This document shows positions 34,482 to 50,934 of a stretch of DNA of 60,088 bases, one piece after another. The DNA is from a virus (Duplodnaviria; Caudoviricetes). The stretch spans positions 1 through 60,088 of IMG/VR virus record IMGVR_UViG_3300021963_006531, one strand, 5' to 3'. The first letter of the stretch is position 1. Each line of letters starts with the position of its first letter. The notes under the pieces are model-generated. The model searched no databases, had not been told where the DNA came from, and saw only the letters and a program-made list of their open reading frames with translations. A program made the position numbers and the translations under genes.

Positions 34482-34500
34482 CAATGTTCTTTAACTTTCA

Positions 34501-34528
34501 AAAGGCAGCTTGACAGTTGCCTTTCTTT
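34501..34528 (+). terminator. Intrinsic terminator whose loop carries a -35 box
   Basis: AAAGGCAGCT-TGAC-AGTTGCCTTT followed by CTTT. Confidence 0.75.
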
Positions 34529-34538
34529 GTTATATAAT
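34510..34538 (+). promoter_or_regulatory. Perfect-consensus sigma70 promoter for a probably leaderless dnaJ
   Basis: TTGACA (34510-34515), 17 nt, TATAAT (34533-34538), 6 nt, ATG 34545. Confidence 0.88.
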
Positions 34539-34544
34539 AGTGCT

Positions 34545-35411
34545 ATGAAAGATTATTATGGAATATTGGGCGTACCAAAAACAGCAACACAGGATGATAT
34601 AAAAAAAGCCTTTAGAAAAATGGCTATGAAACATCACCCTGACCGCGGGGGCGACCAAGGTAAATTTAAAGAGATAAACGAAGCTCACGACATATTGAGC
34701 GACAACGACAAACGTATGATGGTAGATCAAGGAATTGATCCACTTAATCCAAATCAACGACAAGGACAGCATTTCCATAGTAGCGGTAGTCCTTTTGAAT
34801 TCCATTTTGGTGGTCATCCGCACATGGATGATATTTTAAGAGGGTTTGGATTTAACTTTGGTGGTCCACAATGGGGCAACCAACCTCCTAGAAAAAATAA
34901 ATCTCTTAATATTAATCTAAATGTTAGTTTAGAGGAAGTTTATACAGGGGTTACTAAAGAGTTAGAATTAACTTATCCTGGTAATAATGTAAGGTCTATT
35001 AAAATAGAAATCCCTAAAGGTGTAGACAATGGGGTAACTATTAGATATGAGGGCATGGGAGATAGGTCAAATGTTGGGTTTCCTCCTGGGGATCTTTTAG
35101 TAAATATCAATGTCATGCCACATCCTGCATTTGTTAGAGAAGGAATGAATTTATTAAGAGATGTGATGGTAGATTGTTTTTCAGCAATTACAGGCACAAG
35201 CGTAGCATTTGTCACTTTAGATGGTAGAAGACTTGAAGTCACTATCCCACCTGGAGTGCAATCTGGAACTACACTTGGATTAAAAAATGAAGGTATGAAA
35301 GACAATAAAGGTAACGTAGGAAAACTTTATGTAAGAGTCAATATACAAATTCCTACACATCTGTCAACAGAAGTTCTTGATTTAGTTGAGCAAATAAAAA
35401 ATAAAATTTAA
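34545..35411 (+). CDS. dnaJ: DnaJ-class (CbpA-like, no zinc finger) co-chaperone
   Basis: KDYYGILGV...IKKAFRKMAMKHHPDRGG J-domain, G/F-rich region, C-terminal domain with GDLLV and HP-x-F-x-REG; no CxxCxGxG repeats. Confidence 0.92.
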   Translation: MKDYYGILGVPKTATQDDIKKAFRKMAMKHHPDRGGDQGKFKEINEAHDILSDNDKRMMVDQGIDPLNPNQRQGQHFHSSGSPFEFHFGGHPHMDDILRGFGFNFGGPQWGNQPPRKNKSLNINLNVSLEEVYTGVTKELELTYPGNNVRSIKIEIPKGVDNGVTIRYEGMGDRSNVGFPPGDLLVNINVMPHPAFVREGMNLLRDVMVDCFSAITGTSVAFVTLDGRRLEVTIPPGVQSGTTLGLKNEGMKDNKGNVGKLYVRVNIQIPTHLSTEVLDLVEQIKNKI

Positions 35412-35419
35412 ATACTAGT

Positions 35420-35926
35420 ATGGCATTAACAATAATAAAATATCCAAATCCAATATTAGATGAAGTCATGCCAGATTTTGACTTTGAAAATCCAATAATG
35501 GATCCTAAAGAATTAGAAATAGACATGCTGGCTTGCATGTTTGCCAATAATGGGATTGGGCTTGCGGCTCCGCAAGTAGGTATCAAAACTAGAGTGTTTA
35601 CCATGGGACATGTTTCCATGCCTGAAAATAGTTTTGCAGTATTCAATCCAGTTATTGTTGATTGCAGTACTGATATACGTATGCTAGAAGAAGGATGTTT
35701 AAGTTTTCCTGGAGTCTACGCTAATGTTAAGCGACCATCGTGAATAGTTGCTGAGTACTTTGATAAGAATGGAGAAAAGAAAACAGATAAACTTGAAGGG
35801 TATAACTGTGTTTGTTTCTTACATGAAATGGACCACTTAAACGGAGTAGTTTTTAAGGATAGACTTAGTCAGTTAAAATGGGCGTTGGCTATTAAAAAAT
35901 CAAAGAAGGTAAAACATTATGCTTGA
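35420..35926 (+). CDS. def: Peptide deformylase interrupted by one in-frame TGA at 35741-35743 (readthrough, nonsense allele or sequence error)
   Basis: GIGLAAPQVG and EGCLSFPG precede the TGA. The same frame continues IVAEYFDKNGEKKTDKLEGYNCVCFLHEMDHLNGVVFKDRLSQLKWALAIKKSKKVKHYA to a stop at 35926, supplying the HExxH motif (168 codons including the TGA). Confidence 0.9.
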
Positions 35927-38195
35927 ACCAAACGAAGAATTAGAACAAATTTTTGAAAATGCTGTACTGACAGCCATAAACCATAAACACCAATACATTA
36001 CATTAGAGCATTTCCTCTATAGTATGGTTCGTAATCCAACTTTTAATCGTATTCTAACTGACTATGGTATTAAAGTTGACGATTTAGTTTCTAAATTAGA
36101 AAATTATATTAACAACGAGCTTATTAGTATTGTTGACATAGATTTAAATTCTAGACCAAAGAAAACAAATAGCGTAGAAAGAATGCTTAACAGAGCATTC
36201 ACACAAACACTATTTGCTGGAAGAACCACTATTGAACCATTAGATTGTTTCCTAAGCATATTACACGAAAAGAAAAGTCATGCTGCCTTCTATCTACGTA
36301 GTTCTGGGATTGAAAAAGACAAATTTATTGATTACTTAAACAAAGAGAATTTAAATCAATTGGGTGAAGAAAATGAAAATGTTCCTGAAAACAAACTAGA
36401 AGCTATCATTAATAATTTCTGTACCAATCTAAATAACAAGGTTAAACAAAAACAAATTGACCCAGTTATTGGTCGTGATAAAGAAATTGAGGAGATGCAA
36501 TTAGTACTTGCGAGACGTCACAAAGCCAATGTTATGTTGATTGGAGATCCAGGTGTTGGTAAAACTGCGCTTGCAGAAGGGTTAGCACGTAAGATTGTTG
36601 AAGGCAATGTCCCTAAGTTTATTCAAGACCATACAGTTTATACATTAGATATTAGTTCATTGCTTGCTGGTTCTAAGTATCGAGGAGATTTTGAAGAACG
36701 TCTTAAAACTGTACTTACTGCTATACAAAAACGTAAGAAAGCAATCTTGTTTATTGATGAAGCGCACATGATGAACGGTGCTGGTGCATCAAGCGGTCAA
36801 AGTAATGATATGGCAAATATGTTAAAACCTGCTTTAGCCAAAGGCGGATTTAAGGTTATTGCATCTACTACATGGGAAGAATATCGTAAACACTTTGAAA
36901 AGGATCGTGCGCTAATGCGTCGATTCCAACGTGTAACTATTGACGAGCCTAATGAAGAAACATGTATTAAGATTCTAAAAGGTCTTCGCAAATATTACGA
37001 AAAACACCATGGTGTTAAGATCACCAATCAAGCTATTCTTGATAGTGTCAAATATTCTATCAAATATATGAGTGATAAAAAGCTACCTGATAAGGCCATT
37101 GACTTGATAGATTGTGCATCAGCACGTTTTAAAGTTAAAGATGAAGAAGGCGGAGTAGTTGATCACGATGAGATTGTATTTGAAGTGGCAAAGATTACAG
37201 GACTCCCCTTGGAACAGATTGCCGCAAAAGAAACCAAAGTCTTACATGATTTAGAAACAAGTATTAAGTCGGAAGTATTTGGACAGGATACAGCAGTTGA
37301 ATCATTGCTAGACAAGATTTACATTGCACAAGCTGGTTTGAAATCACACAATAAGCCCGTTGGTAGTTTCTTATTTGTAGGACCAACTGGTTGTGGTAAA
37401 ACTGAAACTGCAAAGGTACTATCTGAAAAAATGGGTGTCAAACTTATTCGATTTGACATGAGTGAATTCCAAGAGAAACACTCCGTTGCTAAATTTATTG
37501 GTGCTCCTCCAGGATATGTAGGTTTTGAAGATAACGCAGGACAGTTAATTACTACTCTGCAAGAAAATCCAAATTGTGTATTATTGTTAGACGAAATTGA
37601 AAAAGCACACCCAGATGTAAGTAATGTATTACTTCAATTAATGGATAACGGTTTCGTAACTGGGTCCAACGGTAAGAAAGCAGATGCACGTAACGCTATT
37701 CTTATTATGACCAGTAATCTAGGCGCCGCTGATGGTGAGAAGAAGAACATTGGATTTGGTAATCAAGATAAGTTAGGTACTACTGACGAAGCGGTCAATA
37801 AATTCTTTGCTCCTGAATTTCGCAATCGTTTAGATGGCATTATTAAGTTTAAGAAACTTGAACATAGTGTTATGATTAAAGTAGTAGACAAGTTTATCAA
37901 AGAAATGAATTCTTTAGTTTCTGATAAAAATGTGTTTGTACAGTTAACTGATAGCACTAAAGAATTCTTAATTGAAAAAGGATTTGATCCTAAGATGGGT
38001 GCTAGACCAATGCAACGAGTAATTGATGATAAAATTAAGCGTCCTCTAAGTAGAGAGATCTTATTTGGTCGATTAATCAACGGTGGTATTGTACAAGTAG
38101 CGTATGTAAACAATGATCTAGTATTTGAATATATGGATCCACTACCAATTGCACCAAGTGTACCAGTTCAAGATGAAGAAATCATTGAAGATTAA
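35919..38195 (+). CDS. clpA: ATP-dependent Clp protease ATP-binding subunit ClpA
   Basis: Clp N-domain (HQYITLEHFL), AAA1 GDPGVGKT/FIDEAH, AAA2 GPTGCGKT/LLDEIEKAHPDV, IGF ClpP-docking loop, MGARP; no ClpB middle domain. Confidence 0.93.
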   Translation: MLEPNEELEQIFENAVLTAINHKHQYITLEHFLYSMVRNPTFNRILTDYGIKVDDLVSKLENYINNELISIVDIDLNSRPKKTNSVERMLNRAFTQTLFAGRTTIEPLDCFLSILHEKKSHAAFYLRSSGIEKDKFIDYLNKENLNQLGEENENVPENKLEAIINNFCTNLNNKVKQKQIDPVIGRDKEIEEMQLVLARRHKANVMLIGDPGVGKTALAEGLARKIVEGNVPKFIQDHTVYTLDISSLLAGSKYRGDFEERLKTVLTAIQKRKKAILFIDEAHMMNGAGASSGQSNDMANMLKPALAKGGFKVIASTTWEEYRKHFEKDRALMRRFQRVTIDEPNEETCIKILKGLRKYYEKHHGVKITNQAILDSVKYSIKYMSDKKLPDKAIDLIDCASARFKVKDEEGGVVDHDEIVFEVAKITGLPLEQIAAKETKVLHDLETSIKSEVFGQDTAVESLLDKIYIAQAGLKSHNKPVGSFLFVGPTGCGKTETAKVLSEKMGVKLIRFDMSEFQEKHSVAKFIGAPPGYVGFEDNAGQLITTLQENPNCVLLLDEIEKAHPDVSNVLLQLMDNGFVTGSNGKKADARNAILIMTSNLGAADGEKKNIGFGNQDKLGTTDEAVNKFFAPEFRNRLDGIIKFKKLEHSVMIKVVDKFIKEMNSLVSDKNVFVQLTDSTKEFLIEKGFDPKMGARPMQRVIDDKIKRPLSREILFGRLINGGIVQVAYVNNDLVFEYMDPLPIAPSVPVQDEEIIED

Positions 38196-39433: not shown

Positions 39434-39781
39434 ATGAAATTACTTGAATTCTTCAGCAAAGCAAACTCGGATGATGATGACGCTAAGATTGAGACCGATC
39501 TAAAAAAAGATTTAATGGGCTTTATTCTTGACGATGATGAACTATACAAAGAACACATTCTTCCCCTTGTATCAAAACTTAAAAAAGGCAAGGATGTTGA
39601 AAAGGAAGATTTCATGAAAGCAATCAATCAAGGATGCTTAAAGTTCTATAAAGAAAAAGAGTTTAAAAAAGATCCTAACAAAATGTTCCCAATTAAGATG
39701 CGAAAGGAAATGGCAGGAGATTTATTAACCATCAATACCAAAGGCTCAAAAAAAGATGAAAATTCAAGAACTACTGATTGA
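39434..39781 (+). CDS. Hypothetical protein with capsid-targeting-like N-terminus (MKLLEFF)
   Basis: First gene after TAAATA at 39373-39378; N-terminal motif shared with downstream genes. Confidence 0.7.
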   Translation: MKLLEFFSKANSDDDDAKIETDLKKDLMGFILDDDELYKEHILPLVSKLKKGKDVEKEDFMKAINQGCLKFYKEKEFKKDPNKMFPIKMRKEMAGDLLTINTKGSKKDENSRTTD

Positions 39782-40142
39782 GAGTATTATAAAGCCTGAC
39801 TTATTGAACATGTTCCTAAAACATTGTTCTGAAGAATTAGGACTCGAATCTTTGCCTGAGATAAATCTTGTTGATGATAAACAATACTCCATTGATCATA
39901 AATCTTTTGGAGGTTATCAACCGGGAAAGCAATCAATTATATTAGCTACCAAAGATAGACACCCTGTAGATATTTTTAGAACATTGGCACATGAACTAAC
40001 ACATTATAAACAAGATTTAGATGGACAATTAGAAGATGATAATGTAGGCGACACTGGTAGCCCACAAGAAAATGAAGCCAATGCAAGGGCAGGAATAATA
40101 ATGCGTAATTTTGGTCAGAAGTTTCCAGAAGTATTTGAATAA
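39756..40142 (+). CDS. HExxH zinc-metallopeptidase-like protein with capsid-targeting-like N-terminus
   Basis: MKIQELLIES; RTLAHELTHYKQ and downstream E-x-EANA-x-AG. Confidence 0.7.
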   Translation: MKIQELLIESIIKPDLLNMFLKHCSEELGLESLPEINLVDDKQYSIDHKSFGGYQPGKQSIILATKDRHPVDIFRTLAHELTHYKQDLDGQLEDDNVGDTGSPQENEANARAGIIMRNFGQKFPEVFE

Positions 40143-40150
40143 GGTCCGAT

Positions 40151-41167
40151 ATGCGTATTAAAGAATTATTTGAAGGAGGGTGGGATACCACAAAAACACA
40201 GAGTACAGAGTTAACACCTTCTGTAGTACGTGTGGCCCTTGGTGTGGTAGATCAATTTGTTAAAGACTTCAATAATTATACTAATTCACAAGGTATACCT
40301 CCAATACAGCGTGGTAAGCCAACAGGTAGTACTGCATACTATGAGCAAGACGAAGTAGAAAAACCAGATAACATTTACGGCGACATTGATCTTCAAATGA
40401 TTGCACCAATCAAAGAAAATGAAACAAATGCACAATTTACCAGTTACTGGAATAATTTAACTGATCAATTTGCAAAAAGTGGTCAAGTAAATTATATAGA
40501 TACCAGTGAAAGTAAACCAGGACATCCTATTATTCAAGTTGGACGTGATCAATTTGTACAAGTAGATTTTATGTGGCATCCAGGTAAATTAGCTAGATGG
40601 GGCGCGGCACGTGTAACTCCAGAGCGTGGCGTTAAAGGTATGTTATTTGGTAATATGTTTAGTGTTTTTGGTGAATTATTAGACATGAGTATACAACATG
40701 CTGGAGTACAATTAAAAGTTGTTGATGATCAACGTGTTCCATTTAGTAAGCAAAAAGGAACACAATTGATAACTGTTACTATTGAACCAGAAACGTTTGT
40801 ATTAGATACATTTAAATATCTTGCAAAAAGGATGGGTATTGATAATCCTAAAATTGATCCTTTGTTGTCAAAATTTCCTGGTAATAATATAAATGATGTT
40901 AAAATTTCCACATTAGTAAACTCTGTTAAAGGATTTGCTGCCAGTGCTCAAGCAAATGGAATGTTTGGTAAAAATGATTTAAGTAATTTTGCGTCAGGAC
41001 AGGATTTCTTAAATAAATTTTTGCAAAGATATGAAGAAAAAGCTATGATAGATGTACAAGGCAAAAAACGTGACAAAGCAACAACCCCAGAGGCACAGGC
41101 ACGTGCAGAAGCAGATAAACAAAAGATACTAAGTGGTCTTGAAATGGTTAAAGGATTATTCCAATGA
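40151..41167 (+). CDS. Pol-beta-superfamily nucleotidyltransferase with capsid-targeting-like N-terminus
   Basis: MRIKELFEGG; PTGST...YGDIDLQM...VQVDFM (GS, DxD and third Asp). Confidence 0.7.
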   Translation: MRIKELFEGGWDTTKTQSTELTPSVVRVALGVVDQFVKDFNNYTNSQGIPPIQRGKPTGSTAYYEQDEVEKPDNIYGDIDLQMIAPIKENETNAQFTSYWNNLTDQFAKSGQVNYIDTSESKPGHPIIQVGRDQFVQVDFMWHPGKLARWGAARVTPERGVKGMLFGNMFSVFGELLDMSIQHAGVQLKVVDDQRVPFSKQKGTQLITVTIEPETFVLDTFKYLAKRMGIDNPKIDPLLSKFPGNNINDVKISTLVNSVKGFAASAQANGMFGKNDLSNFASGQDFLNKFLQRYEEKAMIDVQGKKRDKATTPEAQARAEADKQKILSGLEMVKGLFQ

Positions 41168-41541
41168 GAGCAAGAGAATTTGTAAATGAGGCGACAGAAA
41201 AGAAAATAACAAATAGGCAGGGCCAATCTCTTGCTGGTTTGAACGTTTATACTGACGCTGAAAAAAGAGATGCAACTTATGTATCTTATAGATTGGGAAT
41301 GGCTGTAGCAGGAACAGATGGTGAAATTGTTCCAGATACTGATGCTAGGAGTTGGATTGGCAAACAAAAATCAACACACCCTTATACTCCTGAAGAACAG
41401 GAAATGCTCAAAGTAGCTTACAAAGTAGTTGGTGCAGAATATACAGATTTGACAAAGGGCGATATGAAAAGTCGAGAACTAAAAACTACCAATACTGTTA
41501 GTCCTGTAGCAAAAATTAAAAAGAACAAGTACGGTGTATAA
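41164..41541 (+). CDS. Hypothetical protein with capsid-targeting-like N-terminus
   Basis: MRAREFVNEA; ATGA coupling. Confidence 0.7.
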   Translation: MRAREFVNEATEKKITNRQGQSLAGLNVYTDAEKRDATYVSYRLGMAVAGTDGEIVPDTDARSWIGKQKSTHPYTPEEQEMLKVAYKVVGAEYTDLTKGDMKSRELKTTNTVSPVAKIKKNKYGV

Positions 41542-42374
41542 TGAAAATAACTGAACTATTATTTGAAAGTGGGAAACGACTTGCCAAGCAAGGTATTGAA
41601 ATATCTAGAGTAGACAAAGTTGCCTTTCTAAAAGCCAAATCTATTTTAGATCCAATACTGAAAAAAGCTAAACTAAAGGCTGGTTGGACTGCTGGAGGTG
41701 CTGGTAGTTTTGATCCTGAACATCCTTATGGTGGCGGTGGCAGAGATGACAGTGGTGACATTGATATCATGATAGATCCAGAAAATCTTTTAAGAAGTTT
41801 TCCACCAAACATTGAAGAATATAATAGAGCAAGTCCAAAACCACTTGGTCCAAAAGCTATGGCTAACACATTAGCTGATCCAAATAAAAAAGCAAGATTA
41901 GAATTAGCTGCCAGTAAATGGGCATTGGCAACTTATATGACTCAAAATGGACTTCCAACTGATCCAGGAACACTTACTGTAGAATATAGTGCTGACGGTA
42001 AAAGTCATTCAGTAGACTTAATTGTTCGTCCAGAGAGTGCATGGGAATTACATGCACATGATTTCACTAGGGATCCTGAAATGAAAGGCGGACAACTGTT
42101 TACAGACGTGTATCCAACATTGGTTAAACTAGCCAGCAAATCTACTTTTGTAGATCCAAAGACTGGAGAAGAAAAAGGAAGTTTACAGTACAGTCCAGAT
42201 AGAGGACTAGTAGATAGAGAAACTAATCAAGTGGTTGCTATCAACAAGAACGATATTGCAAAAATACTTTTAGGACCACAAGCTACTGCAAGAGATATGT
42301 CTAGCATTTCTGGCATTAGAGACGCTCTAAAAAATGATCCAGCAAAGTTAAGTCAAGTTTTCCCTCAAAGTTAA
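41541..42374 (+). CDS. Second Pol-beta-superfamily nucleotidyltransferase with capsid-targeting-like N-terminus
   Basis: MKITELLFES; GGAGSF...SGDIDIMI...HSVDLIV. Confidence 0.65.
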   Translation: MKITELLFESGKRLAKQGIEISRVDKVAFLKAKSILDPILKKAKLKAGWTAGGAGSFDPEHPYGGGGRDDSGDIDIMIDPENLLRSFPPNIEEYNRASPKPLGPKAMANTLADPNKKARLELAASKWALATYMTQNGLPTDPGTLTVEYSADGKSHSVDLIVRPESAWELHAHDFTRDPEMKGGQLFTDVYPTLVKLASKSTFVDPKTGEEKGSLQYSPDRGLVDRETNQVVAINKNDIAKILLGPQATARDMSSISGIRDALKNDPAKLSQVFPQS

Positions 42375-42391
42375 ACAAATAAATACATATT

Positions 42392-45028
42392 ATGAACTTA
42401 TTTGAACTGTTTAAACCTGTTAAAAACATTATTATGGAAGGCATTGACCATCCAGAAGACCTCATTATTTCGCAAGGTAGTGCAGGTGCCGACAGAGTTT
42501 TGGCAGATTTATCCAGCTTACAAAAAGATCCAAGTACAATCAGTGTTAAATGGGACGGGTTTCCAGCAGTAGTGTTTGGTAGAGATAGTACAGGCAAACT
42601 TGTTTTCATGGACAAACACATGTATGACAAGGTAGTCAAAGGTGCTATGGAATTTATGTCCATTAAAGATTATGACATATCTAGAGAAGCTAATCGTGGC
42701 AACCTTTGGGAAACAGAAAGTGCATTGCGTCCTACATTAGATAAAATTATTCCTAACGTAAAAGATCAATATTGGATGGGAGACTTGATGTGGACTGGTA
42801 CTCCTAAAACTTCTGATGGCTACTTTGTTTTTAAACCTAACACCGTAGAATATCGTGTTAAAATTGATGATACTCCTGGACGTGGCAATACATTAAGCGA
42901 TCAAATCGCACGTAGTATTGGTGGTATTGCGGTACATACTTTTATTCCTGGTCTTGGTCAATCAGACCAACCATTGATTGGCTTAAAAGGTTTAAGAGAA
43001 AACGAAGGAATTGTTTTTCTTGTAGGAGAAATGAGAGACAAACCAAAAGTTGGAATTAATTCAGCTTTATTAAATCAAACTAAGGCTATTATTAGTCAAC
43101 ACAGAACAGCCGTTGATAAATTTATTTCAGATCTAACAGCAATGAAGGGCAAAGCAGTTATTACTGCCATGGGGCCTTTTATTACACGTATGCTTGAAGA
43201 AGATGATATATCTGGTAATATTGTTCCAAGATTTTTAGAATTTCTAAAAGAGCGTCTAAATGACACTGCACAAAATAAATTTTTAGGCGCTAAGAAAGAC
43301 GGTTGGTTATATCAAGAACAGGGCGGTGGTCCAGGACTATTAGGTATTTGGACAATGTGGGCCGCAATTACAGAATTAAAAACTCACATAAAACAACAAA
43401 TTGACACACAGCAACAAGGTAGTGAAATTATTGCTATAACTGATGGTGTTAATGCACACGAAGGTTATGTATTTGGTTCAGGAAAAGACAAATTAAAATT
43501 AATTGATCGTTTAGGTTTTAGTCGTGCTAATTTTGCTAAACATCGTGTACCAGATGATGAAATAGAAGCAAAGAGCAAAATGCCAATGGCAACTTTTTGT
43601 TTTGGTCGTATGAATCCTCCAACACTTGGTCACGGACTTGTGATACAAAAAACTTTAGAAGTAGGTGGTGAAAATTCTTTTATCTTTTTAAGTAATAGCC
43701 ACGACGCTAGTGAAAATCCAATTGATCCAACTACTAAAGCACAATTTGTAGCGCAAATATATCCTAACGCAGCCGACAAACTTGTACAAGATTTTGTACA
43801 AGGACCAATATATGCAGCCAATTGGTTATATAGTAAAGGTTTTAGAAATATGACATTTGTTGCAGGTAGCGATAGATTAGGAAAAGAAAAAGGTAGTATT
43901 GAAAAACTTTTAACCAGTTGGAACAGTGGTCCAATACGCTCCACAGATCCTGCAGGTGCAAGAGAGCATGTTGTTATTAAATTTGAGAGTAGCGGTCAGC
44001 GTGATCCTGATTCCGAGGGGGTGACCGGTTACAGTGGAACAAAAGCTCGCCAAGCGGCGGAAACTGGCAACGAGCAGTTATTCCAGAAATATACAGGTGT
44101 TGGTCCTGACGTCGTTGTAAACGGCAAAACATTATATCAAGCAACAAGAGAAGGTATGGGGATTAAAGATGAAAAACCAACAGCCCAGTCATCTCCTGTT
44201 AAGCAACCTGCTCAACCCAATTTACAAGTAACTAAAAAAGTTCCAGGCAAGGCTCCAATTAGTAAGGAAGTAGATTCTATGAACGAATCAAAACTACGCG
44301 ACAAAGAAGATTTAAAAGCAAAACGTAAGGCTCTGCAAGATATCCAGATGGATAAACATACACATAAAGATCCAGAATTAAAAGCAGAACTAGCAAGAAG
44401 AAAAGCGTCTTTAGAAAAAGAAGCAAAGAAAATGAATCTGTCTGAATCAATCGTCCACGCATACGGTATTTTTGAAGAACAACAATCATTCTTAGACAAA
44501 ATAAAATCAGCTTTTAAAAGCCAAAGTCCTGTAAATGATAAAGTAAAGTATGGTGATACTGCTTATCCCAAATCACCTTTACAACCAGTAAGAGATAAAT
44601 TTCAATCAGGAACATTGGATGTTAATCCAGATAGTACCATTGGAAGATTAAACCAGCGCAATGCCGCAATAAAAGCAGCCGGTGATGAAGCCAATGAAGA
44701 TCGTGTTAAAATGGCTGCTAGAAAAAATGTGTCTGAAGCACCGATCCAAATGGACCCAGACAATCCAAACGATCCAATGGTCATGCCTCCTGGACTTAAC
44801 CCAGGCAAACTAAGTTATAGAAAAGCAAGAGCGGCTGCACAATTAGCAGACCTTGCACGGATGGCTGCTGAAGCAAATGAAAAAAATAGTGCTATAATGT
44901 GGGACTCAATCGTTAGACACTTTCCTGAATTAGAAACAAATATTCGTAGCATTCAACACGGACAAGACGAATTACAAAAATTAAGAAGCAAAGGCGGAGT
45001 GCGTAGTAGGGGCATAGACAAAATATGA
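42392..45028 (+). CDS. Fusion protein: ATP-dependent ligase-like domain, HxGH-type nucleotidylyltransferase and modular tail
   Basis: SVKWDGFP (KxDG motif I), MGDLMW, HEGYV (motif IV), KLKLIDR (motif V); then FGRMNPPTLGH...VAGSDR...SGTKAR. Confidence 0.7.
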   Translation: MNLFELFKPVKNIIMEGIDHPEDLIISQGSAGADRVLADLSSLQKDPSTISVKWDGFPAVVFGRDSTGKLVFMDKHMYDKVVKGAMEFMSIKDYDISREANRGNLWETESALRPTLDKIIPNVKDQYWMGDLMWTGTPKTSDGYFVFKPNTVEYRVKIDDTPGRGNTLSDQIARSIGGIAVHTFIPGLGQSDQPLIGLKGLRENEGIVFLVGEMRDKPKVGINSALLNQTKAIISQHRTAVDKFISDLTAMKGKAVITAMGPFITRMLEEDDISGNIVPRFLEFLKERLNDTAQNKFLGAKKDGWLYQEQGGGPGLLGIWTMWAAITELKTHIKQQIDTQQQGSEIIAITDGVNAHEGYVFGSGKDKLKLIDRLGFSRANFAKHRVPDDEIEAKSKMPMATFCFGRMNPPTLGHGLVIQKTLEVGGENSFIFLSNSHDASENPIDPTTKAQFVAQIYPNAADKLVQDFVQGPIYAANWLYSKGFRNMTFVAGSDRLGKEKGSIEKLLTSWNSGPIRSTDPAGAREHVVIKFESSGQRDPDSEGVTGYSGTKARQAAETGNEQLFQKYTGVGPDVVVNGKTLYQATREGMGIKDEKPTAQSSPVKQPAQPNLQVTKKVPGKAPISKEVDSMNESKLRDKEDLKAKRKALQDIQMDKHTHKDPELKAELARRKASLEKEAKKMNLSESIVHAYGIFEEQQSFLDKIKSAFKSQSPVNDKVKYGDTAYPKSPLQPVRDKFQSGTLDVNPDSTIGRLNQRNAAIKAAGDEANEDRVKMAARKNVSEAPIQMDPDNPNDPMVMPPGLNPGKLSYRKARAAAQLADLARMAAEANEKNSAIMWDSIVRHFPELETNIRSIQHGQDELQKLRSKGGVRSRGIDKI

Positions 45029-46254
45029 AAATTACACAATTATTAGAAGGCAGCAAGCCTCAAAAAATTCCTGCAAGTAAACCACGAAACTTTGTGGTCA
45101 AGAATCAGCAGACCAGTGGCGCTGGCTCACATAAAGACAAAAAGAAAGCAGCCAAGCAGGGTGATGTTAAGCATAAAAATAAAGACATGGAAATGTCTGA
45201 AGACCATTTAAACGAGTACGGCGATACTGCTAAAGGTCAGAAGATGCTGACTAAAGTTCAAAAACGTGCAGTAGATCGTGTAACAAGTAAACGAGCAGAC
45301 ACTGATCCTAAGTACGCTAAAAAGAATAGTGATACCGCTAATCGTGCTTGGGATAGAATGACAGACAAAGATTTAGAAGAAACTTTTGATGATGTTAAAG
45401 ATACTGTTGCAAAAGTTGGTGATAAAGTTAGCGACACCTTATCAAATATCTTACCAAAAGATATGCGACCTTTTGATAATGAAACAGCCGCAAAAAATGC
45501 CGCAACAAATTCTGCGGCATTTAAACCAGTTGTGAAGACTGCATCAGTAACACAAAAACCAATTAAAGAATCTAAAGTTTACGAGCAATATGTTGGCAAT
45601 GGCTCTAGTAAAAATATGCAAATGGCTGTTGACCAAGCCAAGATGCACGCCAAGATACAGGCTATGAGAGCAATACACGGTAACAATTTTCATGATAAAG
45701 AAATGGTTGCACATGAATTTGGAAAATTAGATATTCAAAGTGATGGTAAAGGCGGTTATAAAGTCAATGCTCCCATTACTGTACTACAACCAAAATCTAA
45801 TTCCATAGATAGCAGTCCAGCAACTAATAACATTTCTAACCCACCCAACAGTTATATGGATAGCAGTCCTGCTAAAGATAATGGAACAACTACTAGTAAA
45901 ATGTCTCCTATGGAAAGCATGGCAGACAGTATAGTTAAAGAAATGAATAGAAATCCAGACTTAATGAGTCAAAGCGATTATGATCGTTATCAACAAAGCC
46001 AAATGGATAATCAGAAACGCAATTTCAAACGTGACGAATTAGAACATGAACTTAGTCACGAAGACAGAGGTATGTATTGGGTTGTGGTTGCAAAAAATGG
46101 TAAATGGGAACATACTAAAGCACAGCCTAAACAAGAAGGTATGAATGCGGCCATGCGTTTGATTAGTGCATTGCATAGTAAATATCCAGGCATGCACTTA
46201 GGTATGCAATATCCTAATGGGCAAGTAGAAAATTTTGGAAAAGGTAGAAAGTAA
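45025..46254 (+). CDS. Modular low-complexity protein with capsid-targeting-like N-terminus
   Basis: MKITQLLEGS; Lys-rich patches separated by hydrophobic-x-E sites. Confidence 0.7.
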   Translation: MKITQLLEGSKPQKIPASKPRNFVVKNQQTSGAGSHKDKKKAAKQGDVKHKNKDMEMSEDHLNEYGDTAKGQKMLTKVQKRAVDRVTSKRADTDPKYAKKNSDTANRAWDRMTDKDLEETFDDVKDTVAKVGDKVSDTLSNILPKDMRPFDNETAAKNAATNSAAFKPVVKTASVTQKPIKESKVYEQYVGNGSSKNMQMAVDQAKMHAKIQAMRAIHGNNFHDKEMVAHEFGKLDIQSDGKGGYKVNAPITVLQPKSNSIDSSPATNNISNPPNSYMDSSPAKDNGTTTSKMSPMESMADSIVKEMNRNPDLMSQSDYDRYQQSQMDNQKRNFKRDELEHELSHEDRGMYWVVVAKNGKWEHTKAQPKQEGMNAAMRLISALHSKYPGMHLGMQYPNGQVENFGKGRK

Positions 46255-46255
46255 A

Positions 46256-46690
46256 ATGGACAAGTATCATTTAGCACTAAAGACAGCATTTGCTAGTGAA
46301 TATGCTTTTTATTTAAAGGCACAAAATTTCCATTGGAATGTAGAGGGAATGTTCTTTGAACAATTTCACAGTTTGTTTGGAAAAATTTATGAGGAAGTAG
46401 GTGATGTCATTGACGACTTTGCAGAAAATTTACGCAAAGTCAATGCTTATGCACCTGCTAGTTTTAGAAGATTCAGTATGCTCAGCGAAATAGATGACGA
46501 AACAGAAATCTTAGAAGCAACAAGTATGTGTGCTACCCTTCTAGCTGATAGTGAAAAAATGGAAGAGATTTTTAAAATCACTTATCAAATGGCAGAGGAT
46601 AATAGAGATTTTGGTCTAGCTAACTTCCTAGCAGAACGTCAAGATGCACATGCTAAACATAGTTGGATGTTAAGAGCCACGTTAAAATGA
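46256..46690 (+). CDS. dps: Dps / ferritin-like DNA protection protein
   Basis: YLKAQNFHWNVEG-x-x-F-x-x-x-H-x-LF...D-x-x-AE...H-x-KH-x-WML. Confidence 0.9.
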   Translation: MDKYHLALKTAFASEYAFYLKAQNFHWNVEGMFFEQFHSLFGKIYEEVGDVIDDFAENLRKVNAYAPASFRRFSMLSEIDDETEILEATSMCATLLADSEKMEEIFKITYQMAEDNRDFGLANFLAERQDAHAKHSWMLRATLK

Positions 46691-46983
46691 AACAGTACAG
46701 AGTCACTTCAGAAAATATAAACCTAAGTAGCGATGATGATTGCTATTTAGATCCAAACGATCCTATAAATGAAATCAAAGTATTACAGCATTTAGGTGGA
46801 ATCAATTCTGTAAGTAGACTACAAGAGTATCGCTTATCTCAGCAAGAAAGCAATATTAGTACTACTGCTAATGAAAATGCAAAGTTAATGAGGGAACACA
46901 ATATTAAACCTGGAACCCCTGAGTGGTTCCAACTTTGGTTTAGTTTACCGTATATGACTGGTGAAAAGAAGGTTGAAAAATGA
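46687..46983 (+). CDS. Hypothetical protein
   Basis: ATGA coupling at both ends; NIKPGTPEWFQLWF motif. Confidence 0.7.
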   Translation: MKQYRVTSENINLSSDDDCYLDPNDPINEIKVLQHLGGINSVSRLQEYRLSQQESNISTTANENAKLMREHNIKPGTPEWFQLWFSLPYMTGEKKVEK

Positions 46984-48044
46984 AAATACAAGATTTATTA
47001 GAGTTTGCTCCAACAGTGGATAAAGACTCAGCATTAGGAAAAGTATTAGGAAACCCTGATGTTCAAAACACTATTGACAAAATAGGTAATTCATTGTCCA
47101 ATGTATTCAAACCATCAGTTGAGAAAGGCGCCGATGTTGAACCTAAAAATACTGATAAGAAAACTTCAAAAAGTAAATCAAGTAGATCAGTGGATATTTC
47201 AGATATGGAGCCAGAATTTGAAAGACAAGGTATTAAAGACCCATTTGTAAAAAACGCATTGATGGGCAAGTTTCATCAAGAAGCAGGTGCAAAATTTGGT
47301 ACTACTGAGATTCCGTTTACTAACACATCAAATAAAAGAATTAAAGAAAAGTTACCGCAGTTAGCTGGTATGAATGATGACGAATTAAATGCACTTAAAG
47401 CAGATCCTAGAGCATTTTTTAATAGAGCATATGGCGGAGTATTAGATAATACTGGACCAGATGACGGTTACAAATTCCGTGGTCGTGGATTAACTGGATT
47501 AACTGGTAAAACAAATTATTCGGCTGCTTCACAAGCACTGTTTGGTGATGACAGATTAGTTAAAAATCCTGATTTACTTTTAGATCCTGAAGTAGACAAA
47601 AAGGCAGCAGTATGGTATTATAAACGTGCTGGTGCAGATAAAGTATCATTTAGTAATCAAGAAGACGCCAATATTTGGGCAATACACAAAGCTGGTGGTA
47701 AAGCCTATGCTCCAGGAACTAAGTTAGGAAATATTGCACTTGCTGATCTTAATAATAAAACTGGAAATATGACCAGTGGTACTGGCACTATGGTTGCTAA
47801 AGGCGGAGACAATACTGGCAAAATAATTGCAGGCAGTACTTTATTGGCTAAAGCAGATGAATTGATAAACAAATATAAAACAGAGTTGCCTAAATTTATA
47901 TCTTCAATTAGTGACTTATCTGGGGGTGAAGATGAAGTTGCTGTAATAATTAATGGTAAGAAAAAGAAATTTAAGAATAAAAAAGAAGCTGAACTAGCAA
48001 TAAAGTTAGCCAAAGATCAAGGACTTACAGTAGATTATGCGTAA
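46980..48044 (+). CDS. GH19/lysozyme-like hydrolase with capsid-targeting-like N-terminus (candidate virion-associated lysin)
   Basis: MKIQDLLEFA; HQEAG...DDGYKFRGRGLTGLTGKTNY...LVKNPDLL...AAVWYY. Confidence 0.75.
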   Translation: MKIQDLLEFAPTVDKDSALGKVLGNPDVQNTIDKIGNSLSNVFKPSVEKGADVEPKNTDKKTSKSKSSRSVDISDMEPEFERQGIKDPFVKNALMGKFHQEAGAKFGTTEIPFTNTSNKRIKEKLPQLAGMNDDELNALKADPRAFFNRAYGGVLDNTGPDDGYKFRGRGLTGLTGKTNYSAASQALFGDDRLVKNPDLLLDPEVDKKAAVWYYKRAGADKVSFSNQEDANIWAIHKAGGKAYAPGTKLGNIALADLNNKTGNMTSGTGTMVAKGGDNTGKIIAGSTLLAKADELINKYKTELPKFISSISDLSGGEDEVAVIINGKKKKFKNKKEAELAIKLAKDQGLTVDYA

Positions 48045-48681
48045 ACCAGAAGTTTATTTAGATATGGATGGTGTTATAGCAGACTTTTTTACAGAGTATG
48101 CTAAACTTGCTGGCATTGAAAATGGCAACTATAGAGATATACCTCCAGCAAAAACTGATCCAACATTGAACAAAATGATTGGAACAGACTTCTTTGCTAG
48201 ACTACCAAAATGTCCTAATGCAGACGCTCTAGTAGATATGATAGTGAAAACTTTTGGATACTATCATATCTGTTCAAGTCCTCTAAGAGGAGACTTTGAA
48301 AACAGTGAAAAACAAAAGAAGATTTGGTTAAAGAAGAATTTAAAGCATCAACCAACTGATGTTATCATTACACCTAATAAGGCCAAATATGCTGTTCAAT
48401 CAGACGGAACTCCTAATATACTAATAGATGACAGGGGTAGTAATATTAGTGCTTGGGAGGCAAAAGGCGGTATTGGTATCAAATATCAAGCAGATGAAGA
48501 TAGTTTACAAGTTGTCATTGACGGAATAAAAAGAGCCTTTCAAGTAATTAAAGGTGAACAGAAACACGAACCTCAAAAGCTACAAAGTTTAGATCGAAGT
48601 AGCGGCAACTTAATTGCGAAAAGTGGCGATGATGAAGAACACGGTTCTACTTCTAAGATACCAGGTAAGGAACAACAATGA
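48037..48681 (+). CDS. HAD-family 5'(3')-deoxyribonucleotidase-like phosphatase
   Basis: YLDMDGVIADF, ICSSP, K-x-x-W, NILIDD...NI-x-x-W-x-x-x-GG-x-GI. Confidence 0.85.
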   Translation: MRKPEVYLDMDGVIADFFTEYAKLAGIENGNYRDIPPAKTDPTLNKMIGTDFFARLPKCPNADALVDMIVKTFGYYHICSSPLRGDFENSEKQKKIWLKKNLKHQPTDVIITPNKAKYAVQSDGTPNILIDDRGSNISAWEAKGGIGIKYQADEDSLQVVIDGIKRAFQVIKGEQKHEPQKLQSLDRSSGNLIAKSGDDEEHGSTSKIPGKEQQ

Positions 48682-49490
48682 AAATTTCAGAATTATTAAC
48701 AGAAGCTGATATGCCTGAATCTCTAAAGGATATACCTGTGGTAAGTTTTGGTGATTATAAACTAACTGCTGGAGATGTTGCAGATGTATTACCGGGTGTT
48801 GGACCAGAAGATGTAATTGAGCAAGGAAAATATTTAAAAGATTTTCTTTCAACAAAAATTAAAGGCGATTATACAAGAGCAGATGCATTAATTGACATAG
48901 CAACGTTTTATCCAGCTTTTAGAATCAGCAAGTGGGCACTAGCGGCACGTGGTGGTGCAGGAGCCGCAGGTAAAGAAGTTGCCAAAGGAGCCTTAAGAAG
49001 AGAAGTTGGTCAACAGGTACAACAAAAAGCAGACATACTTCCCTCAATGAAAGACTCTAAAAAATCAGGATCAGGCGGAGTTTCGCCAATAGCTACTAAA
49101 ATAACATCTCCATCTAGAAAAAGAAAATATAAAGTAGGAGATCAAGTTCCAGTTGAAGTCAAAGGCAAACAAGAAGTGGGAGTCGTGTCTAATGTATTGC
49201 CTAATGGTTATGAAGTTGATATTAGTCATGTAAAAGATTCTCCGTCAAAATCAGTTAATATCCCTGAACCCATGTTTGAAGAAGCCAGCGCAGGCGCTAC
49301 TTCCGCAGGTAATATTGCCAGTACAGGGAATAGTCCTCATATAGCCGCAGGAACTCCAGCTGTTTTAAAACGATGGAGTGGGGAACCCGGAAAAATAGGA
49401 AAAAGCATTAAGCCTCCCAAAACAGAACCTCAAGATTCTGACGATAATCCTGTGACAAATCCCAAAGTTGGCAACAACTTAATTTCATAA
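48678..49490 (+). CDS. Hypothetical protein with capsid-targeting-like N-terminus
   Basis: MKISELLTEA; internal MFEEASAGATSAGNIA. Confidence 0.7.
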   Translation: MKISELLTEADMPESLKDIPVVSFGDYKLTAGDVADVLPGVGPEDVIEQGKYLKDFLSTKIKGDYTRADALIDIATFYPAFRISKWALAARGGAGAAGKEVAKGALRREVGQQVQQKADILPSMKDSKKSGSGGVSPIATKITSPSRKRKYKVGDQVPVEVKGKQEVGVVSNVLPNGYEVDISHVKDSPSKSVNIPEPMFEEASAGATSAGNIASTGNSPHIAAGTPAVLKRWSGEPGKIGKSIKPPKTEPQDSDDNPVTNPKVGNNLIS

Positions 49491-49513: not shown

Positions 49514-50926
49514 ATGCCTTTTAAGAGTAAAAAACAAAAAAGAACCATTGATGCGGCAGCACATAACCCTGCTTTTGCAAAGAAAGTAGGAATCAAGACC
49601 AGTGATGCTAAAAAAATGTCTGCACATGGCAAGGGTCAAACTAAGTTTGAAGAAGCTAAGGATACTGTAGAAAAAGATGAAAAAGGCAACGTCAAATCAT
49701 GGAAGCATGAGGGCGATTGGAAAAAATCAAACGACAAAGAAGGGCGTGGCAAAGTGACTAATTTAAGTGATAAAGCTCGTCGCAAGACAGAGAAATTAAG
49801 TAAAGCAGAAAAGGAAATGGCTGAAGCATTTGAAAATGCTATTTCAGAAGTTACTATTACTTCAGGCCCAAATAAGGGTAAGCAGTGGAGCCCAAAAAAT
49901 CCAGGACCAACAAATAAAAATTATAAAGAAATTGATGGCAATATACCAAGTCCACCAGATGGAGCAACTGCACCTCCTCCAGGATATAAGCCACCGCAGC
50001 CAAAGTCAAATAAAAGTTCGGCAGTAAATTCAGATGATGCAGAAATGACTGCTGAAGCAAAACAAACTTACGGTGGTAAAGGAAAACAAATGACTAAATC
50101 ACAACATGATGCTGATGTAAAGAAAAAGAAAGAAAAAGAAAAAATGAAAAAAATGGCTGAGGCATTTATTCAAATTGGCCGTTTAGAACAAATGATCTTT
50201 GAAGCTAAAAAGACTAAAAATAAAGAAGAGACTCCAAAAGAAGGCAATGCTTTCGGTGATGCTGTTCGTAAAGCTAAAGAAGACGGTATACAAAAAGGTG
50301 AAAAAGTCAAAGTAGGTGGCAAAGAATATCCAGTCAAAGAATCAAGCAAAGATAAAGAATGCAACCATACACCAAAAGGTAAAAAATGTCCAGTGCATGG
50401 ATTAAAAGAGTGCGGAATGTATGAAGGCAACGATGGTAATCTAGCTAACAATGCTAAACCATACGACAAAGTAACACGTGGTGATGTTATTGCTGGACGC
50501 TTGGGTAAAGACGAAATGGGTGGTAAGAAGAAAAACAAAAAAACTACTGAAACTTTTATGCCAGTAAAACCAAAACAACCTACACCATCTCCAATTGACC
50601 CAATCAAAAAAGGTTTTAAAAAAGTAGCTGATAAAATTCTAGATAAAGATCCAAAACCAAAAAGTGACATTGGGGATAAAAATATACCTGAACCAACTAC
50701 AAAACCTTTAGAAAAATCTTACGACGAATTTAATGAAGGATATACAATTAACGGAAAGAAAGTTTCTAAAGCTGCCTATGAAAAAGAAATGTCAAAAGCA
50801 GGAAAAGGAAAGAAAAAAGTAAAAGAAGGGTGGACTCATGATAGTTTAGCCGCACAACTTTTTGAAAACGGTGACGAATACGTTGTATCACTCCACAACA
50901 GATTGGCGAAACAGTTAAAAGGTTAA
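49514..50926 (+). CDS. Lys/Glu-rich modular protein, probable head-internal/core protein
   Basis: TAAATA (49491-49496) and GGAG upstream; many hydrophobic-x-E sites. Confidence 0.65.
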   Translation: MPFKSKKQKRTIDAAAHNPAFAKKVGIKTSDAKKMSAHGKGQTKFEEAKDTVEKDEKGNVKSWKHEGDWKKSNDKEGRGKVTNLSDKARRKTEKLSKAEKEMAEAFENAISEVTITSGPNKGKQWSPKNPGPTNKNYKEIDGNIPSPPDGATAPPPGYKPPQPKSNKSSAVNSDDAEMTAEAKQTYGGKGKQMTKSQHDADVKKKKEKEKMKKMAEAFIQIGRLEQMIFEAKKTKNKEETPKEGNAFGDAVRKAKEDGIQKGEKVKVGGKEYPVKESSKDKECNHTPKGKKCPVHGLKECGMYEGNDGNLANNAKPYDKVTRGDVIAGRLGKDEMGGKKKNKKTTETFMPVKPKQPTPSPIDPIKKGFKKVADKILDKDPKPKSDIGDKNIPEPTTKPLEKSYDEFNEGYTINGKKVSKAAYEKEMSKAGKGKKKVKEGWTHDSLAAQLFENGDEYVVSLHNRLAKQLKG

Positions 50927-50934
50927 ACCAATGT

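Follow-up and report, generated by a model that had tools for sequence, protein, structure and literature searches.

Introduction

Family X-type polymerases are known so far from cells, giant eukaryotic viruses, and African swine fever virus (ASFV). The ASFV enzyme, Pol X (174 aa), is a minimal family X enzyme that consists of a palm and a thumb without the helix-hairpin-helix (HhH) and 8-kDa parts, and in the repair of base damage by excision it acts together with the DNA ligase of the virus. It is also the nearest structural analogue of the two proteins that we describe here, which are encoded by open reading frames (ORFs) A and B of an uncultured tailed virus (Duplodnaviria; Caudoviricetes). 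Both ORFs lie on a 60,088-base piece of the virus record IMGVR_UViG_3300021963_006531 from IMG/VR (positions 1 to 60,088; estimated completeness 17%), and this whole stretch is called the window below. As in ASFV, a viral enzyme would be paired with a ligase, although the partner of A and B, a protein with a DUF6267 domain, is not a recognized DNA ligase. The identity between ASFV Pol X and A or B is 10–13%, A and B are about 100–160 residues longer, and in place of a single enzyme the window encodes two paralogues with predicted phage head-loading leaders.

Among phage proteins the nearest functional analogue is RlaP (PF10127), a Pol-beta nucleotidyltransferase that is genetically tied to a ligase; in the case of A and B the partner is only a candidate for this activity. 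RlaP is described as adding one or two nucleoside monophosphates to damaged RNA 3′ ends before ligation (bioRxiv 10.64898/2025.12.29.696909; PMC7824862). The former report places it in RNA repair operons and jumbo phages and assigns it an all-helical C-terminal domain (bioRxiv 10.64898/2025.12.29.696909). Unlike RlaP, A and B have a predicted Pol X-like α/β thumb and give no PF10127 match.

The combination of a Pol-beta-superfamily nucleotidyltransferase with an OB-less ligase also recalls U-insertion editing in kinetoplastids. In that pathway, gap filling in a nicked duplex by the terminal uridylyltransferase (TUTase) RET2 is followed by sealing through an OB-less RNA ligase of the Rnl2 family. 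TUTases are indeed among the palm-level structural matches of A and B. They match on the palm only, however, and nothing at this locus indicates an RNA substrate or a guide strand.

As to delivery, phage T4 provides the closest precedent. Leaders of 10–20 residues are described as loading T4's internal proteins as well as Alt into the prohead, after which gp21 removes them (PMC5694885, PMC3012670). A and B share with T4 IPI–III, Alt, and gp24 an N-terminal leader of about 9–10 residues of the form M-K-x-x-x-E-[LF]-x-x-E. Furthermore, the window phage has a T4-type DNA polymerase, and its relatives have a T4-type protease. In contrast to T4, the cargo here would consist of putative nucleic-acid enzymes, and packaging and cleavage are predictions for this lineage. 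A second precedent is set by the polyvalent proteins, which combine peptidase, lysozyme, nucleotidyltransferase, and other effector domains in long chains and are believed to reach the host cell together with the DNA (PMC5512222). They resemble A-domain fusions of 800–1700 aa with metallopeptidase, lysozyme, amidoligase, GGACT, or ParB-named parts. In that survey, the polyvalent Pol-beta nucleotidyltransferase is a minimal four-strand version that occurs only in conjugative elements of Firmicutes (PMC5512222). A and B are instead Pol X-like, and the window encodes every domain as a gene of its own, complete with leader.

Based on the following comparisons, we tentatively propose that A and B are head-packaged, processed miniature Pol X-like enzymes which, as soon as infection begins, extend the 3′ ends of damaged polynucleotide, and that a protein combining DUF6267 with a HIGH-superfamily nucleotidyltransferase (DUF6267-HIGH) seals the product or completes the repair. 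We rate the chance that this proposal is right as somewhat short of even.

Results and Discussion

Motifs and Predicted Folds of A and B

Both proteins contain the motifs of Pol-beta nucleotidyltransferases (Table 1), and the serine of the G-S motif stands 17–18 residues ahead of the first D-x-D aspartate in A as well as in B. An alignment of 58 A-family proteins, which share between 83% and 23% identity with the protein of the window, has invariant columns at G59, S60, D67, Y76, G77, D78, D80, D139, and G163. The invariant columns of the B family (52 proteins, 88% to 29% identity to the window protein) include G52, G53, A54, G55, S56, F57, D58, G72, D73, D75, D79, D159, H171, H173, and D174. 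The aspartate triad is invariant among homologues of both families, down to 23–29% identity. Other conserved positions include P157 and K162 in A and R226 in B. As judged from the invariant residues, A and B appear to be catalytically intact members of the Pol-beta nucleotidyltransferase superfamily.

Table 1. Features of the locus encoding A and B; positions refer to the window.
Feature	Position	Strand	Description	Basis
ORF A	40151..41167	+	338 aa, predicted Pol-beta-fold nucleotidyltransferase	ORF list, predicted model
ORF A leader	40151..40174	+	MRIKELFE, predicted propeptide resembling the T4 capsid-targeting sequence (CTS); predicted cut after E8, mature start GGW
ORF A TGST	40322..40333	+	residues 58–61, G-S motif (G59, S60 invariant)
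ORF A GDIDL	40379..40393	+	residues 77–81, metal-binding DxD (D78, D80 invariant)
ORF A QVDF	40559..40570	+	residues 137–140, third catalytic Asp (D139 invariant)
125-aa ORF	41164..41541	+	between A and B, leader MRAREFVNE; without family match
ORF B	41541..42374	+	277 aa, predicted Pol-beta-fold nucleotidyltransferase with PolX-like palm and thumb	ORF list, predicted model
ORF B leader	41541..41567	+	MKITELLFE, predicted T4-CTS-like propeptide; predicted cut after E9, mature start SGKRL
ORF B GGAGSFD	41694..41714	+	residues 52–58, G-S motif, 7/7 invariant
ORF B GDIDI	41754..41768	+	residues 72–76, DxD (D73, D75 invariant)
ORF B SVDL	42009..42020	+	residues 157–160, third Asp (D159 invariant)
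ORF B HAHD	42051..42062	+	family-specific (H171, H173, D174 invariant)
Partner protein	42392..45028	+	878 aa: DUF6267 (18–383), HIGH-superfamily nucleotidyltransferase (from 403), long low-complexity tail
Gene block	39434..49490	+	no intergenic gap of 35 nt or more	14 ORFs, 9 with CTS-like leader
Leader-bearing ORF starts in block	39434, 39756, 40151, 41164, 41541, 42392, 45025, 46980, 48678	+		start pattern

AlphaFold models were obtained with a pLDDT of 93.5 and a pTM of 0.89 for A, and with 88.3 and 0.82 for B. Only the first 7–10 residues are disordered (pLDDT below 50 for residues 1–7 of A and 1–10 of B). We compared both models with 48,161 representative chains using VIA-align, run without help from Foldseek, and considered the 50 best rows per model. 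The palm with its alpha-beta-alpha-beta-alpha-beta fold is present in both models: the Pol-beta superfamily accounts for every one of the 50 rows with A and for 49 with B, where MiD49 (4woy_A) at rank 46 is the sole non-member. This result supports the assignment of both proteins as Pol-beta folds.

The best matches of A are 3k75_D and 3lqc_B (both Z 10.4, with 185 and 181 aligned residues). The latter is a palm-thumb portion of Pol beta, of which 181 of 194 residues align with an rmsd of 3.9 Å. Chain 4rpx_A (Z 10.3), Thermus PolX (9.8), TdT (9.8), ASFV Pol X (5hr9_A; Z 9.7, 168/176 residues), and Pol lambda (9.2) also rank high. B gives its best matches with the Pol beta palm-thumb (Z 9.4–9.6, including 3k75_D at 9.6 over 184 residues), alongside 4rpx_A (9.5), TdT (8.7), and ASFV Pol X (8.4, 157/176 residues). 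Pol lambda, Pol mu, and Leishmania Pol beta are likewise among the chains that follow the Pol beta fragment in the comparisons of the two models. Altogether, these family X alignments have Z values of 8.4–10.4 over 157–185 residues, and the matched range in Pol beta is residues 142–335. A Foldseek search of the PDB with B returned nine matches at E ≤ 0.001 (best E 4.4e-4), and each of the 49 rows listed is a chain of Pol lambda, Pol mu, Pol beta, or TdT. With A, the best match is Pol lambda (E 2.1e-3), followed by Pol beta, Pol mu, and Thermus Pol X. The only close match in BFVD is a 1096-aa uncultured-phage protein named ParB/Sulfiredoxin that contains an A domain, and the next named matches are Pol X proteins of giant viruses.

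In both models, beta strands are part of the second domain, which can be aligned with the thumb of Pol X. In A, the PolX-like palm and thumb extend over about residues 13–252. An extra helical C-terminal part (253–338) with the near-invariant residues K306 and K309 lies outside the structural matches. According to these models, the core of both proteins resembles a stripped-down family X polymerase, with palm and α/β thumb and without the 8-kDa and helix-hairpin-helix parts.

Many other members of the superfamily, namely TUTases, GLD-2, OAS, CD-NTases, CCA enzymes, MenT, and small alarmone synthetases, match the models on the palm only (about 90–121 residues). Chains of OAS1, CdnC, CdnE, CdnD, and cGLR (Z 5.2–8.3) in this group provide the grounds for reading A and B as cGAS/DncV-like or OAS-like synthases, which would make decoy or interfering (oligo)nucleotides against the cyclic-nucleotide defense of the host. 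These matches cover 100–121 palm residues and rank below the Pol X chains; the CD-NTase chains as such reach Z 5.2–7.7, and their helical C-terminal domain did not align. Since PADLOC and Pfam give no match and the genetic context indicates polynucleotide enzymes, we consider such a signaling role hardly probable at all.

Three named classes can be set aside. For CCA-adding enzymes and poly(A) polymerases (PAPs), we found no PF01743 or PAP match in Pfam and palm-only structural matches (Z 5.5–7.1). The minimal antitoxins of the MNT type do not fit two-domain proteins of 277–338 aa in a block without a HEPN gene. Finally, an RlaP assignment fails on the missing PF10127 match and on the second domain, which has beta strands and is not all-helical.

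A and B as Remote Paralogues

A direct BLASTP comparison of A and B gives a best E of 4.3. Profile comparison by hhalign aligns the strand of the third aspartate and the next helix (E 0.0022, probability 13%), and the two models match the same solved chains over the same range. Two fusion proteins (P0296 and P0313) have a third domain whose palm resembles the A profile (i-E 8.3e-4 and 1.2e-5), whereas its C-terminal part resembles the B profile (2.4e-6 and 1.2e-15). From these matches, together with the equal spacing of the G-S and D-x-D motifs, we conclude that A and B are distant paralogues. The original prediction, made from the sequence alone, had named two divergent Pol-beta-type nucleotidyltransferases with G-S, D-x-D, and a later third Asp that are otherwise dissimilar. 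The motifs are found at the quoted places and are invariant in the 58 A and 52 B homologues, and both the predicted folds and the conserved triad bear out the assignment. The dissimilarity holds at the level of BLASTP and gives way to remote paralogy once profiles, structures, and fusions are compared.

Neither ORF matches any family in scans of Pfam, PHROGs, NCBIfam, and PADLOC: in Pfam, no family reaches E ≤ 1 with A, and B obtains only a chance-level match to Inp1. Searching PDB sequences gave no match for A or B at E ≤ 10, and tblastn against 50,697 phage records gave none at E ≤ 1e-5. When 185,579 prokaryote species, each represented by one genome, were scanned for sequence patterns, no relative of A or B was detected; such scans reach only fairly close relatives. 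In viral sequence, the relatives of A number 705 when 90%-identity clusters are counted and 205 when 50%-identity representatives are counted, while B has relatives in 138 clusters; many of these are encoded on contigs of 100–350 kb. Thus, the A and B families are unannotated and phage-borne, and by sequence A and B fail membership of every named family. A literature search on DUF6267, on jumbo phages and family X, and on PolX and phage nucleotidyltransferases found no description of A or B, although supplements (e.g., of PMC5512222 and PMC7824862) may hold family lists.

Gene Neighborhood and Fusions

To describe the surroundings of B we compared 80 viral loci with a B relative by matching their ORFs to the window proteins. 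Seven of these loci have no complete B ORF. The B protein reaches at least 50% identity in 42 loci; 27 of these encode DUF6267 directly downstream, 5 have it fused to B, and 4 have it within 3 kb, where the order is B-A-DUF6267. In the other six, the sequence remaining downstream of B is too short for a whole DUF6267 gene, and ORFs with an open end were skipped in ORF calling. DUF6267 is also fused or adjacent in all three loci with B at 30–50% identity. The 28 loci with B below 30% identity are different: DUF6267 is fused in one and within 3 kb in two, the contig ends early in two, and 23 have none nearby. The A gene lies within one gene of B in 20 of the 42 close loci, is fused in one, lies elsewhere in two, and is unseen in 19. 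The association of A and B with DUF6267 is therefore strong in this comparison.

Fusions connect the same domains in several orders. B, DUF6267, and the HIGH domain form single chains of about 880–900 aa in six loci (L039, L040, L042, L043, L045, and L049), and the order HIGH, B, DUF6267 occurs once (L077, about 25% identity). We also found A+B (L028), B+A (P0275), DUF6267+A+B-like (P0296, P0313), DUF6267+A (P0359), and HIGH-like+A (P0273). A and B are thus coupled and, in other phages, fused to the DUF6267-HIGH nucleotidyltransferase gene that neighbors them in the window. Two distant A fusions (P0325 and P0351) have a region with KVDG ... EGVVMK ... FFKLV ahead of the A domain and a HIGH motif after this region. 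Here Pfam RNA_ligase matches below threshold (E 1.1e-4 and 5.7e-4; 22.9 and 20.5 bits with a cut-off of 27). P0351 contains a second nucleotidyltransferase-like stretch; hhalign of this protein with the B profile was uninformative.

In the window, A, B, and the 125-aa ORF between them are three ORFs coupled via overlapping stop and start codons: the 125-aa ORF overlaps the stop of ORF A and has one base in common with the start of ORF B. It is kept at the same position in related loci and is part of the DUF6267 protein in L028.

The A domain also occurs in multi-effector fusions (peptidase, lysozyme, amidoligase), which is one reason to consider A and B as host-directed effectors. Such proteins would nucleotidylate host tRNA 3′ ends in the manner of MenT, or host proteins, and shut down translation or defense without any repair. 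The precedents among CTS-tagged T4 cargo, Alt and IPI, are described as host-directed (PMC3012670, PMC5694885), and NMPylation of proteins has been proposed for polyvalent-protein nucleotidyltransferases (PMC5512222). MenT1 (Z 7.7) and the aminoglycoside nucleotidyltransferase ANT(2″) (Z 6.7) are among the palm-level matches of B. However, the MenT and NMPylating families are single-domain and minimal, whereas the second domain of A and B aligns with the Pol X thumb (157–185 residues). An effector role would also leave the recurrent fusion with DUF6267 and the HIGH nucleotidyltransferase in several orders unexplained, and a HEPN or similar partner is missing. We regard this explanation as quite improbable.

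In phages with a distant B that has no leader, a 237-aa protein with a G-S ... DLDLHL pattern, recognized by eye, is encoded about 1.4 kb downstream (L056, 10239–10952). From this pattern, it may be a further minimal nucleotidyltransferase.

Leaders and Predicted Head Packaging

A loose leader pattern occurs at 10 of the 58 ORF starts of the window, and nine of the ten fall inside the gene block that contains A and B (Table 1). Besides the leaders of A, B, and the 125-aa ORF (MRAREFVNE), MKIQELLIE and MKISELLTE are examples. A direct comparison with the T4 record shows that the window leaders are almost identical in form to those of gp24 (MAKINELLRE), IPII and IPIII (MKTYQEFIAE), IPI (MKTFKEF...), and Alt (MELITELFDE). 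Neither the upstream DNA nor the codon choice is conserved, so that the signal resides in the protein. Cleavage by gp21 takes place after [LI]-x-E. We examined 246 A-family sequences with an aligned N-terminus for a corresponding junction. In those with short leaders (n = 162), glutamate precedes the conserved GGW in 157, and L, I, or V occupies position −3 in 153. Where the junction is internal (n = 63), the numbers are 56 and 54. Another 21 A homologues begin directly with M-GGW, and distant B homologues of 280 aa begin with M-SGNALKKLGI, at the residue after the predicted cut. The partner leader ends IIME|GIDHPED, and fusion junctions retain VAE|AGKRL and LLE|GIEHPED. Peptidase_S77 (PF03420), the family of the T4 prohead protease, scores above the Pfam cut-off in all five large related phage records. 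The window itself, at 17% completeness, contains no head genes.

The same block encodes an HExxH metallopeptidase-like protein (ORF 39756) and a GH19/endolysin-like protein (ORF 46980), both tagged and both typical of ejected proteins. The original prediction had placed the two nucleotidyltransferases among tagged cargo, and this setting is borne out by the likeness of the leaders to the propeptides of T4 IPII/IPIII, gp24, and Alt and by the glutamate counts. On these sequence grounds we infer, with good foundation, that A and B are packaged into the head.

Alternatively, A and B could be unpackaged cytoplasmic enzymes of replication or repair, and the N-terminal motif could be a recognition tag for, e.g., the ClpA/B-like ATPase, or a feature of assembly or translation. 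This explanation concerns the delivery and not the chemistry of the two proteins. Packaging of A and B is deduced from sequence, a ClpA/B-like AAA+ protein, DnaJ, and deformylase precede the block in conserved order, and the block also contains untagged metabolic genes (Dps-like and NT5C-like). Several observations are difficult to reconcile with this alternative. The leaders are nearly those of T4 gp24, IPII/III, and Alt; the [LIV]-x-E junction is retained inside fusions, where an N-terminal recognition tag makes no sense; tagless homologues start exactly at the predicted mature residue; the T4-type prohead protease is present in 5/5 related records; and the tagged lysozyme-like protein (46980) fits an ejected protein. 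For these reasons we hold cytoplasmic action to be unlikely.

The C-termini of four fusion proteins (L039, L042, L045, and L049) are also leader-like (...SFKEFFKV, ...SFKEFLFKT, ...SFQSFFKSKL, and ...FKNFFLSRW) and resemble their own N-terminal MNFKEFFTE. T4 Alt is described as being processed at both ends (PMC5694885).

The DUF6267-HIGH Partner

The N-terminal domain of the partner matches Pfam DUF6267 with E 4.6e-33, and the protein matches a PHROG annotated as cytidyltransferase (E 1.9e-31) and, weakly, Pfam CTP_transf_like. The DUF6267 domain contains, in order, the motifs KWDG, GDLMW, EGYVF, and KLKLI, and the HIGH domain contains GRMNPPTLGH ... SGTKAR. Across 20 aligned DUF6267 domains, the residues K39, W40, D41, G42, G116, D117, Y140, E343, G344, V346, and K355 are invariant, and we take them to represent ligase motifs I, III, IIIa, IV, and V. 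Candidate motifs IIIa and IV are separated by about 200 residues. With this assignment, DUF6267 may be read as a candidate OB-less adenylyltransferase of the ligase type. An Atlas look-up provides the only outside hint, a lead score of 0.77 to a cluster with PF09414 in 48% of its members. The predicted complex of B with the DUF6267 domain has a score of 0.00, which speaks neither for nor against binding.

DUF6267 occurs in 482 phage records, and our literature search found no paper on it. In marine T4-like cyanophages, DUF6267 together with a cytidylyltransferase gene is conserved without a relative of A or B upstream; in cyanophage P-HM2, for example, the upstream gene is unrelated to either. 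The five large related records encode a canonical RNA ligase in one case, a real RlaP elsewhere in one, an ATP-dependent DNA ligase in two, and an NAD-dependent ligase in none, and this sporadic occurrence shows no clear pattern of substitution. The complete genome of a 322-kb relative (G003) encodes, at a different place, a canonical DNA ligase of the ATP-dependent type. Therefore, DUF6267 is not simply the replicative ligase there, nor is it the only ligase candidate.

The cytidylyltransferase-like HIGH domain also permits a different view, in which this domain makes a CDP-alcohol and the Pol-beta-fold proteins, as LicD/fukutin-like phosphotransferases, transfer the phospho-alcohol to DNA, a glycan, or a protein. 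LicD-type enzymes share the nucleotidyltransferase fold with G-S and DxD motifs, and the BFVD search returned a LicD family protein far from the top (rank 41, E 0.34). The 50 best VIA-align rows of either model include no LicD, FKRP, or fukutin chain, which leaves the idea without support from this comparison. Pfam gives no LicD match, and the role of DUF6267 would be left unexplained. We judge such a phosphotransferase activity very improbable.

Proposed Function

Returning to virion-delivered repair, we infer polynucleotide catalysis, packaging, cleavage, a ligase nature of DUF6267, and joint action from what is observed in the motifs, predicted folds, synteny, fusions, and leaders. An 8–9-residue capsid-targeting leader of the T4 type would carry each protein into the prohead, where a T4-type prohead protease would remove it after [LIV]-x-Glu. 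In their mature form, the enzymes would be carried inside the head and pass into the cell along with the DNA. There, A and B would add nucleotides to the 3′-OH ends of a broken or gapped polynucleotide, and the DUF6267-HIGH protein, acting as a ligase-type adenylyltransferase, would seal the product. The substrate could be either the incoming phage DNA, with its nicks, gaps, and nuclease cuts, or RNA such as cleaved tRNA. The modeled Pol X-like thumb favors a templated duplex substrate, whereas the OB-less, RNA-ligase-like look of the partner favors RNA or hybrid nicks. The original prediction had offered tRNA 3′-end repair, protein NMPylation of host defense factors, and synthesis of decoy nucleotides as possible roles. 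Of these, nucleic-acid end repair fits the evidence, and the other two have nothing specific in their favor.

A number of observations weigh against this proposal, and the data behind it come from metagenomes. The likeness of A and B to Pol X exists at the level of the fold only (9–16% identity, TM 0.3–0.45, rmsd 3.3–4.6 Å). Their family X Z values exceed those of the palm-only matches by only 1–2 units, and the Pol X palm and thumb models of Pfam match neither protein. The small Z margin together with the low identity and TM values indicates an architectural resemblance and does not prove family X membership. Ahead of the palm, the models contain only one long helix and have neither HhH fingers nor an 8-kDa dRP-lyase domain. 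Small DNA polymerases are basic, unlike mature A (pI 6.4) and mature B (pI 7.8). No ligase relationship of DUF6267 emerged from profile comparisons. A Pfam scan of 20 members found DUF6267 only and no ligase family, the best E of the DUF6267 profile against PDB sequences is 0.54, and hhalign gave a probability below 1% with T4 Rnl2 and T4 DNA ligase and no support with a 20-sequence Rnl2 alignment. The same method gave no support for a relation to the ligase-like fusions P0325 and P0351. In 23 of 28 distant-B loci there is no DUF6267 nearby, and the distant B proteins have no leader. The window lacks the T4 late-promoter word TATAAATA on both strands (0 matches, compared with 8.55 ± 2.6 expected from shuffles). 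Finally, the A domain is fused to metallopeptidase-like, lysozyme-like, amidoligase, GGACT, and ParB-named parts as well, so that fusion may reflect shared delivery, as described for polyvalent proteins (PMC5512222), and not a shared pathway.

If true, miniature family X-type polymerases would exist in tailed phages too, and they would be delivered as proteins with the genome. This would widen the idea of T4 internal proteins from inhibitors and ADP-ribosyltransferases to nucleic-acid repair. The proposal would also provide two unannotated families with a testable function and DUF6267 with a function, and short leaders ending in [LIV]-x-E would allow head cargo to be predicted from sequence in uncultured giant phages related to T4. 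In its most far-reaching form, a T4-related giant phage would load a fill-and-seal kit of two miniature Pol X-type polymerases and a new OB-less ligase-HIGH fusion into its head by means of T4-type leaders and inject it with the genome. The kit would mend breaks that host nucleases make in the incoming DNA, or in tRNA, ahead of any phage gene expression. This version is doubtful. If correct, it would be a new class of pre-packaged counter-defense and, to our knowledge, the first virion-delivered polymerase-ligase repair system in a bacteriophage.

Other Features of the Window

Nearly all long ORFs of the window are on the + strand. The family B DNA polymerase of the T4 type (51694–54384; PHROG 262, E 8.5e-197) has its closest cultured relatives in the giant myoviruses Sinorhizobium phage Phosso (49% protein identity) and Agrobacterium phage Atu_ph07 (45%), followed by the Rak2-like group and Salicola phage SCTP-2 (about 42%). 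Sigma-70-like TTGACA-N17-TATAAT pairs are found in four intergenic gaps (26420–26481, 34482–34544, 50927–51027, and 57074–57123).

In related phages, the genes for DnaJ (J and C-terminal domain), a deformylase, and a 758-aa ClpA/ClpB-like double-AAA+ protein (together 34545–38195, the last at 35919–38195 in the window) are conserved in this order directly upstream of the tagged block. The peptide deformylase gene (35420–35918; Pfam Pep_deformylase, E 7.5e-22) is interrupted after 107 codons by a TGA stop, which is located upstream of the metal motif HEMDH. In relative L008, which is 98% identical, TGG (Trp) takes the place of this TGA and the frame continues to 168 aa. Either a nonsense mutation or a sequencing error accounts for the stop.

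The window encodes two GH19/endolysin-like proteins (46980–48044 and 31094–31732; Pfam E about 2e-5, slightly under the cut-off). The first matches a PHROG endolysin (E 1.7e-21) and is the only one with a leader (MKIQDLLE). This difference suggests that one degrades the wall as an ejected enzyme and that the other serves in lysis. The tagged HExxH protein (39756–40142; 128 aa, AHELTHY) weakly resembles metallopeptidases of the zincin-like type (PHROG 87, E 1.3e-5). P0254 and P0259 combine its homologues with the A domain in a single chain, and homologues with the same leader (MKIKELLTES) also occur in unrelated phages that have distant tagless B relatives.

Further HIGH-superfamily nucleotidyltransferase-like genes are located at 49514–50926 (470 aa) and 26850–27254 (134 aa, CTP_transf_like). 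The 470-aa protein combines an N-terminal motif common to virion proteins (PHROGs 16759 and 22033) with a cytidyltransferase region (PHROG 764). Iron-related auxiliary genes (338–944, 28168–28491, and 46256–46690) code for FeS_assembly_P, IscA/HesB-type Fe-S biosynthesis, 4Fe-4S ferredoxin, and Dps/ferritin-like proteins, and the Dps/ferritin-like gene is located inside the tagged block. A run of very large fiber-like ORFs (3418, 942, 527, 1045, and 1498 aa) occupies 1299–23943. Several of these begin with one N-terminal motif, INIG..N.GTGD.LR.AF.K.N.N, and one contains Mtd_N (Pfam, E 3.5e-14), the N-terminal domain of the major tropism determinant.

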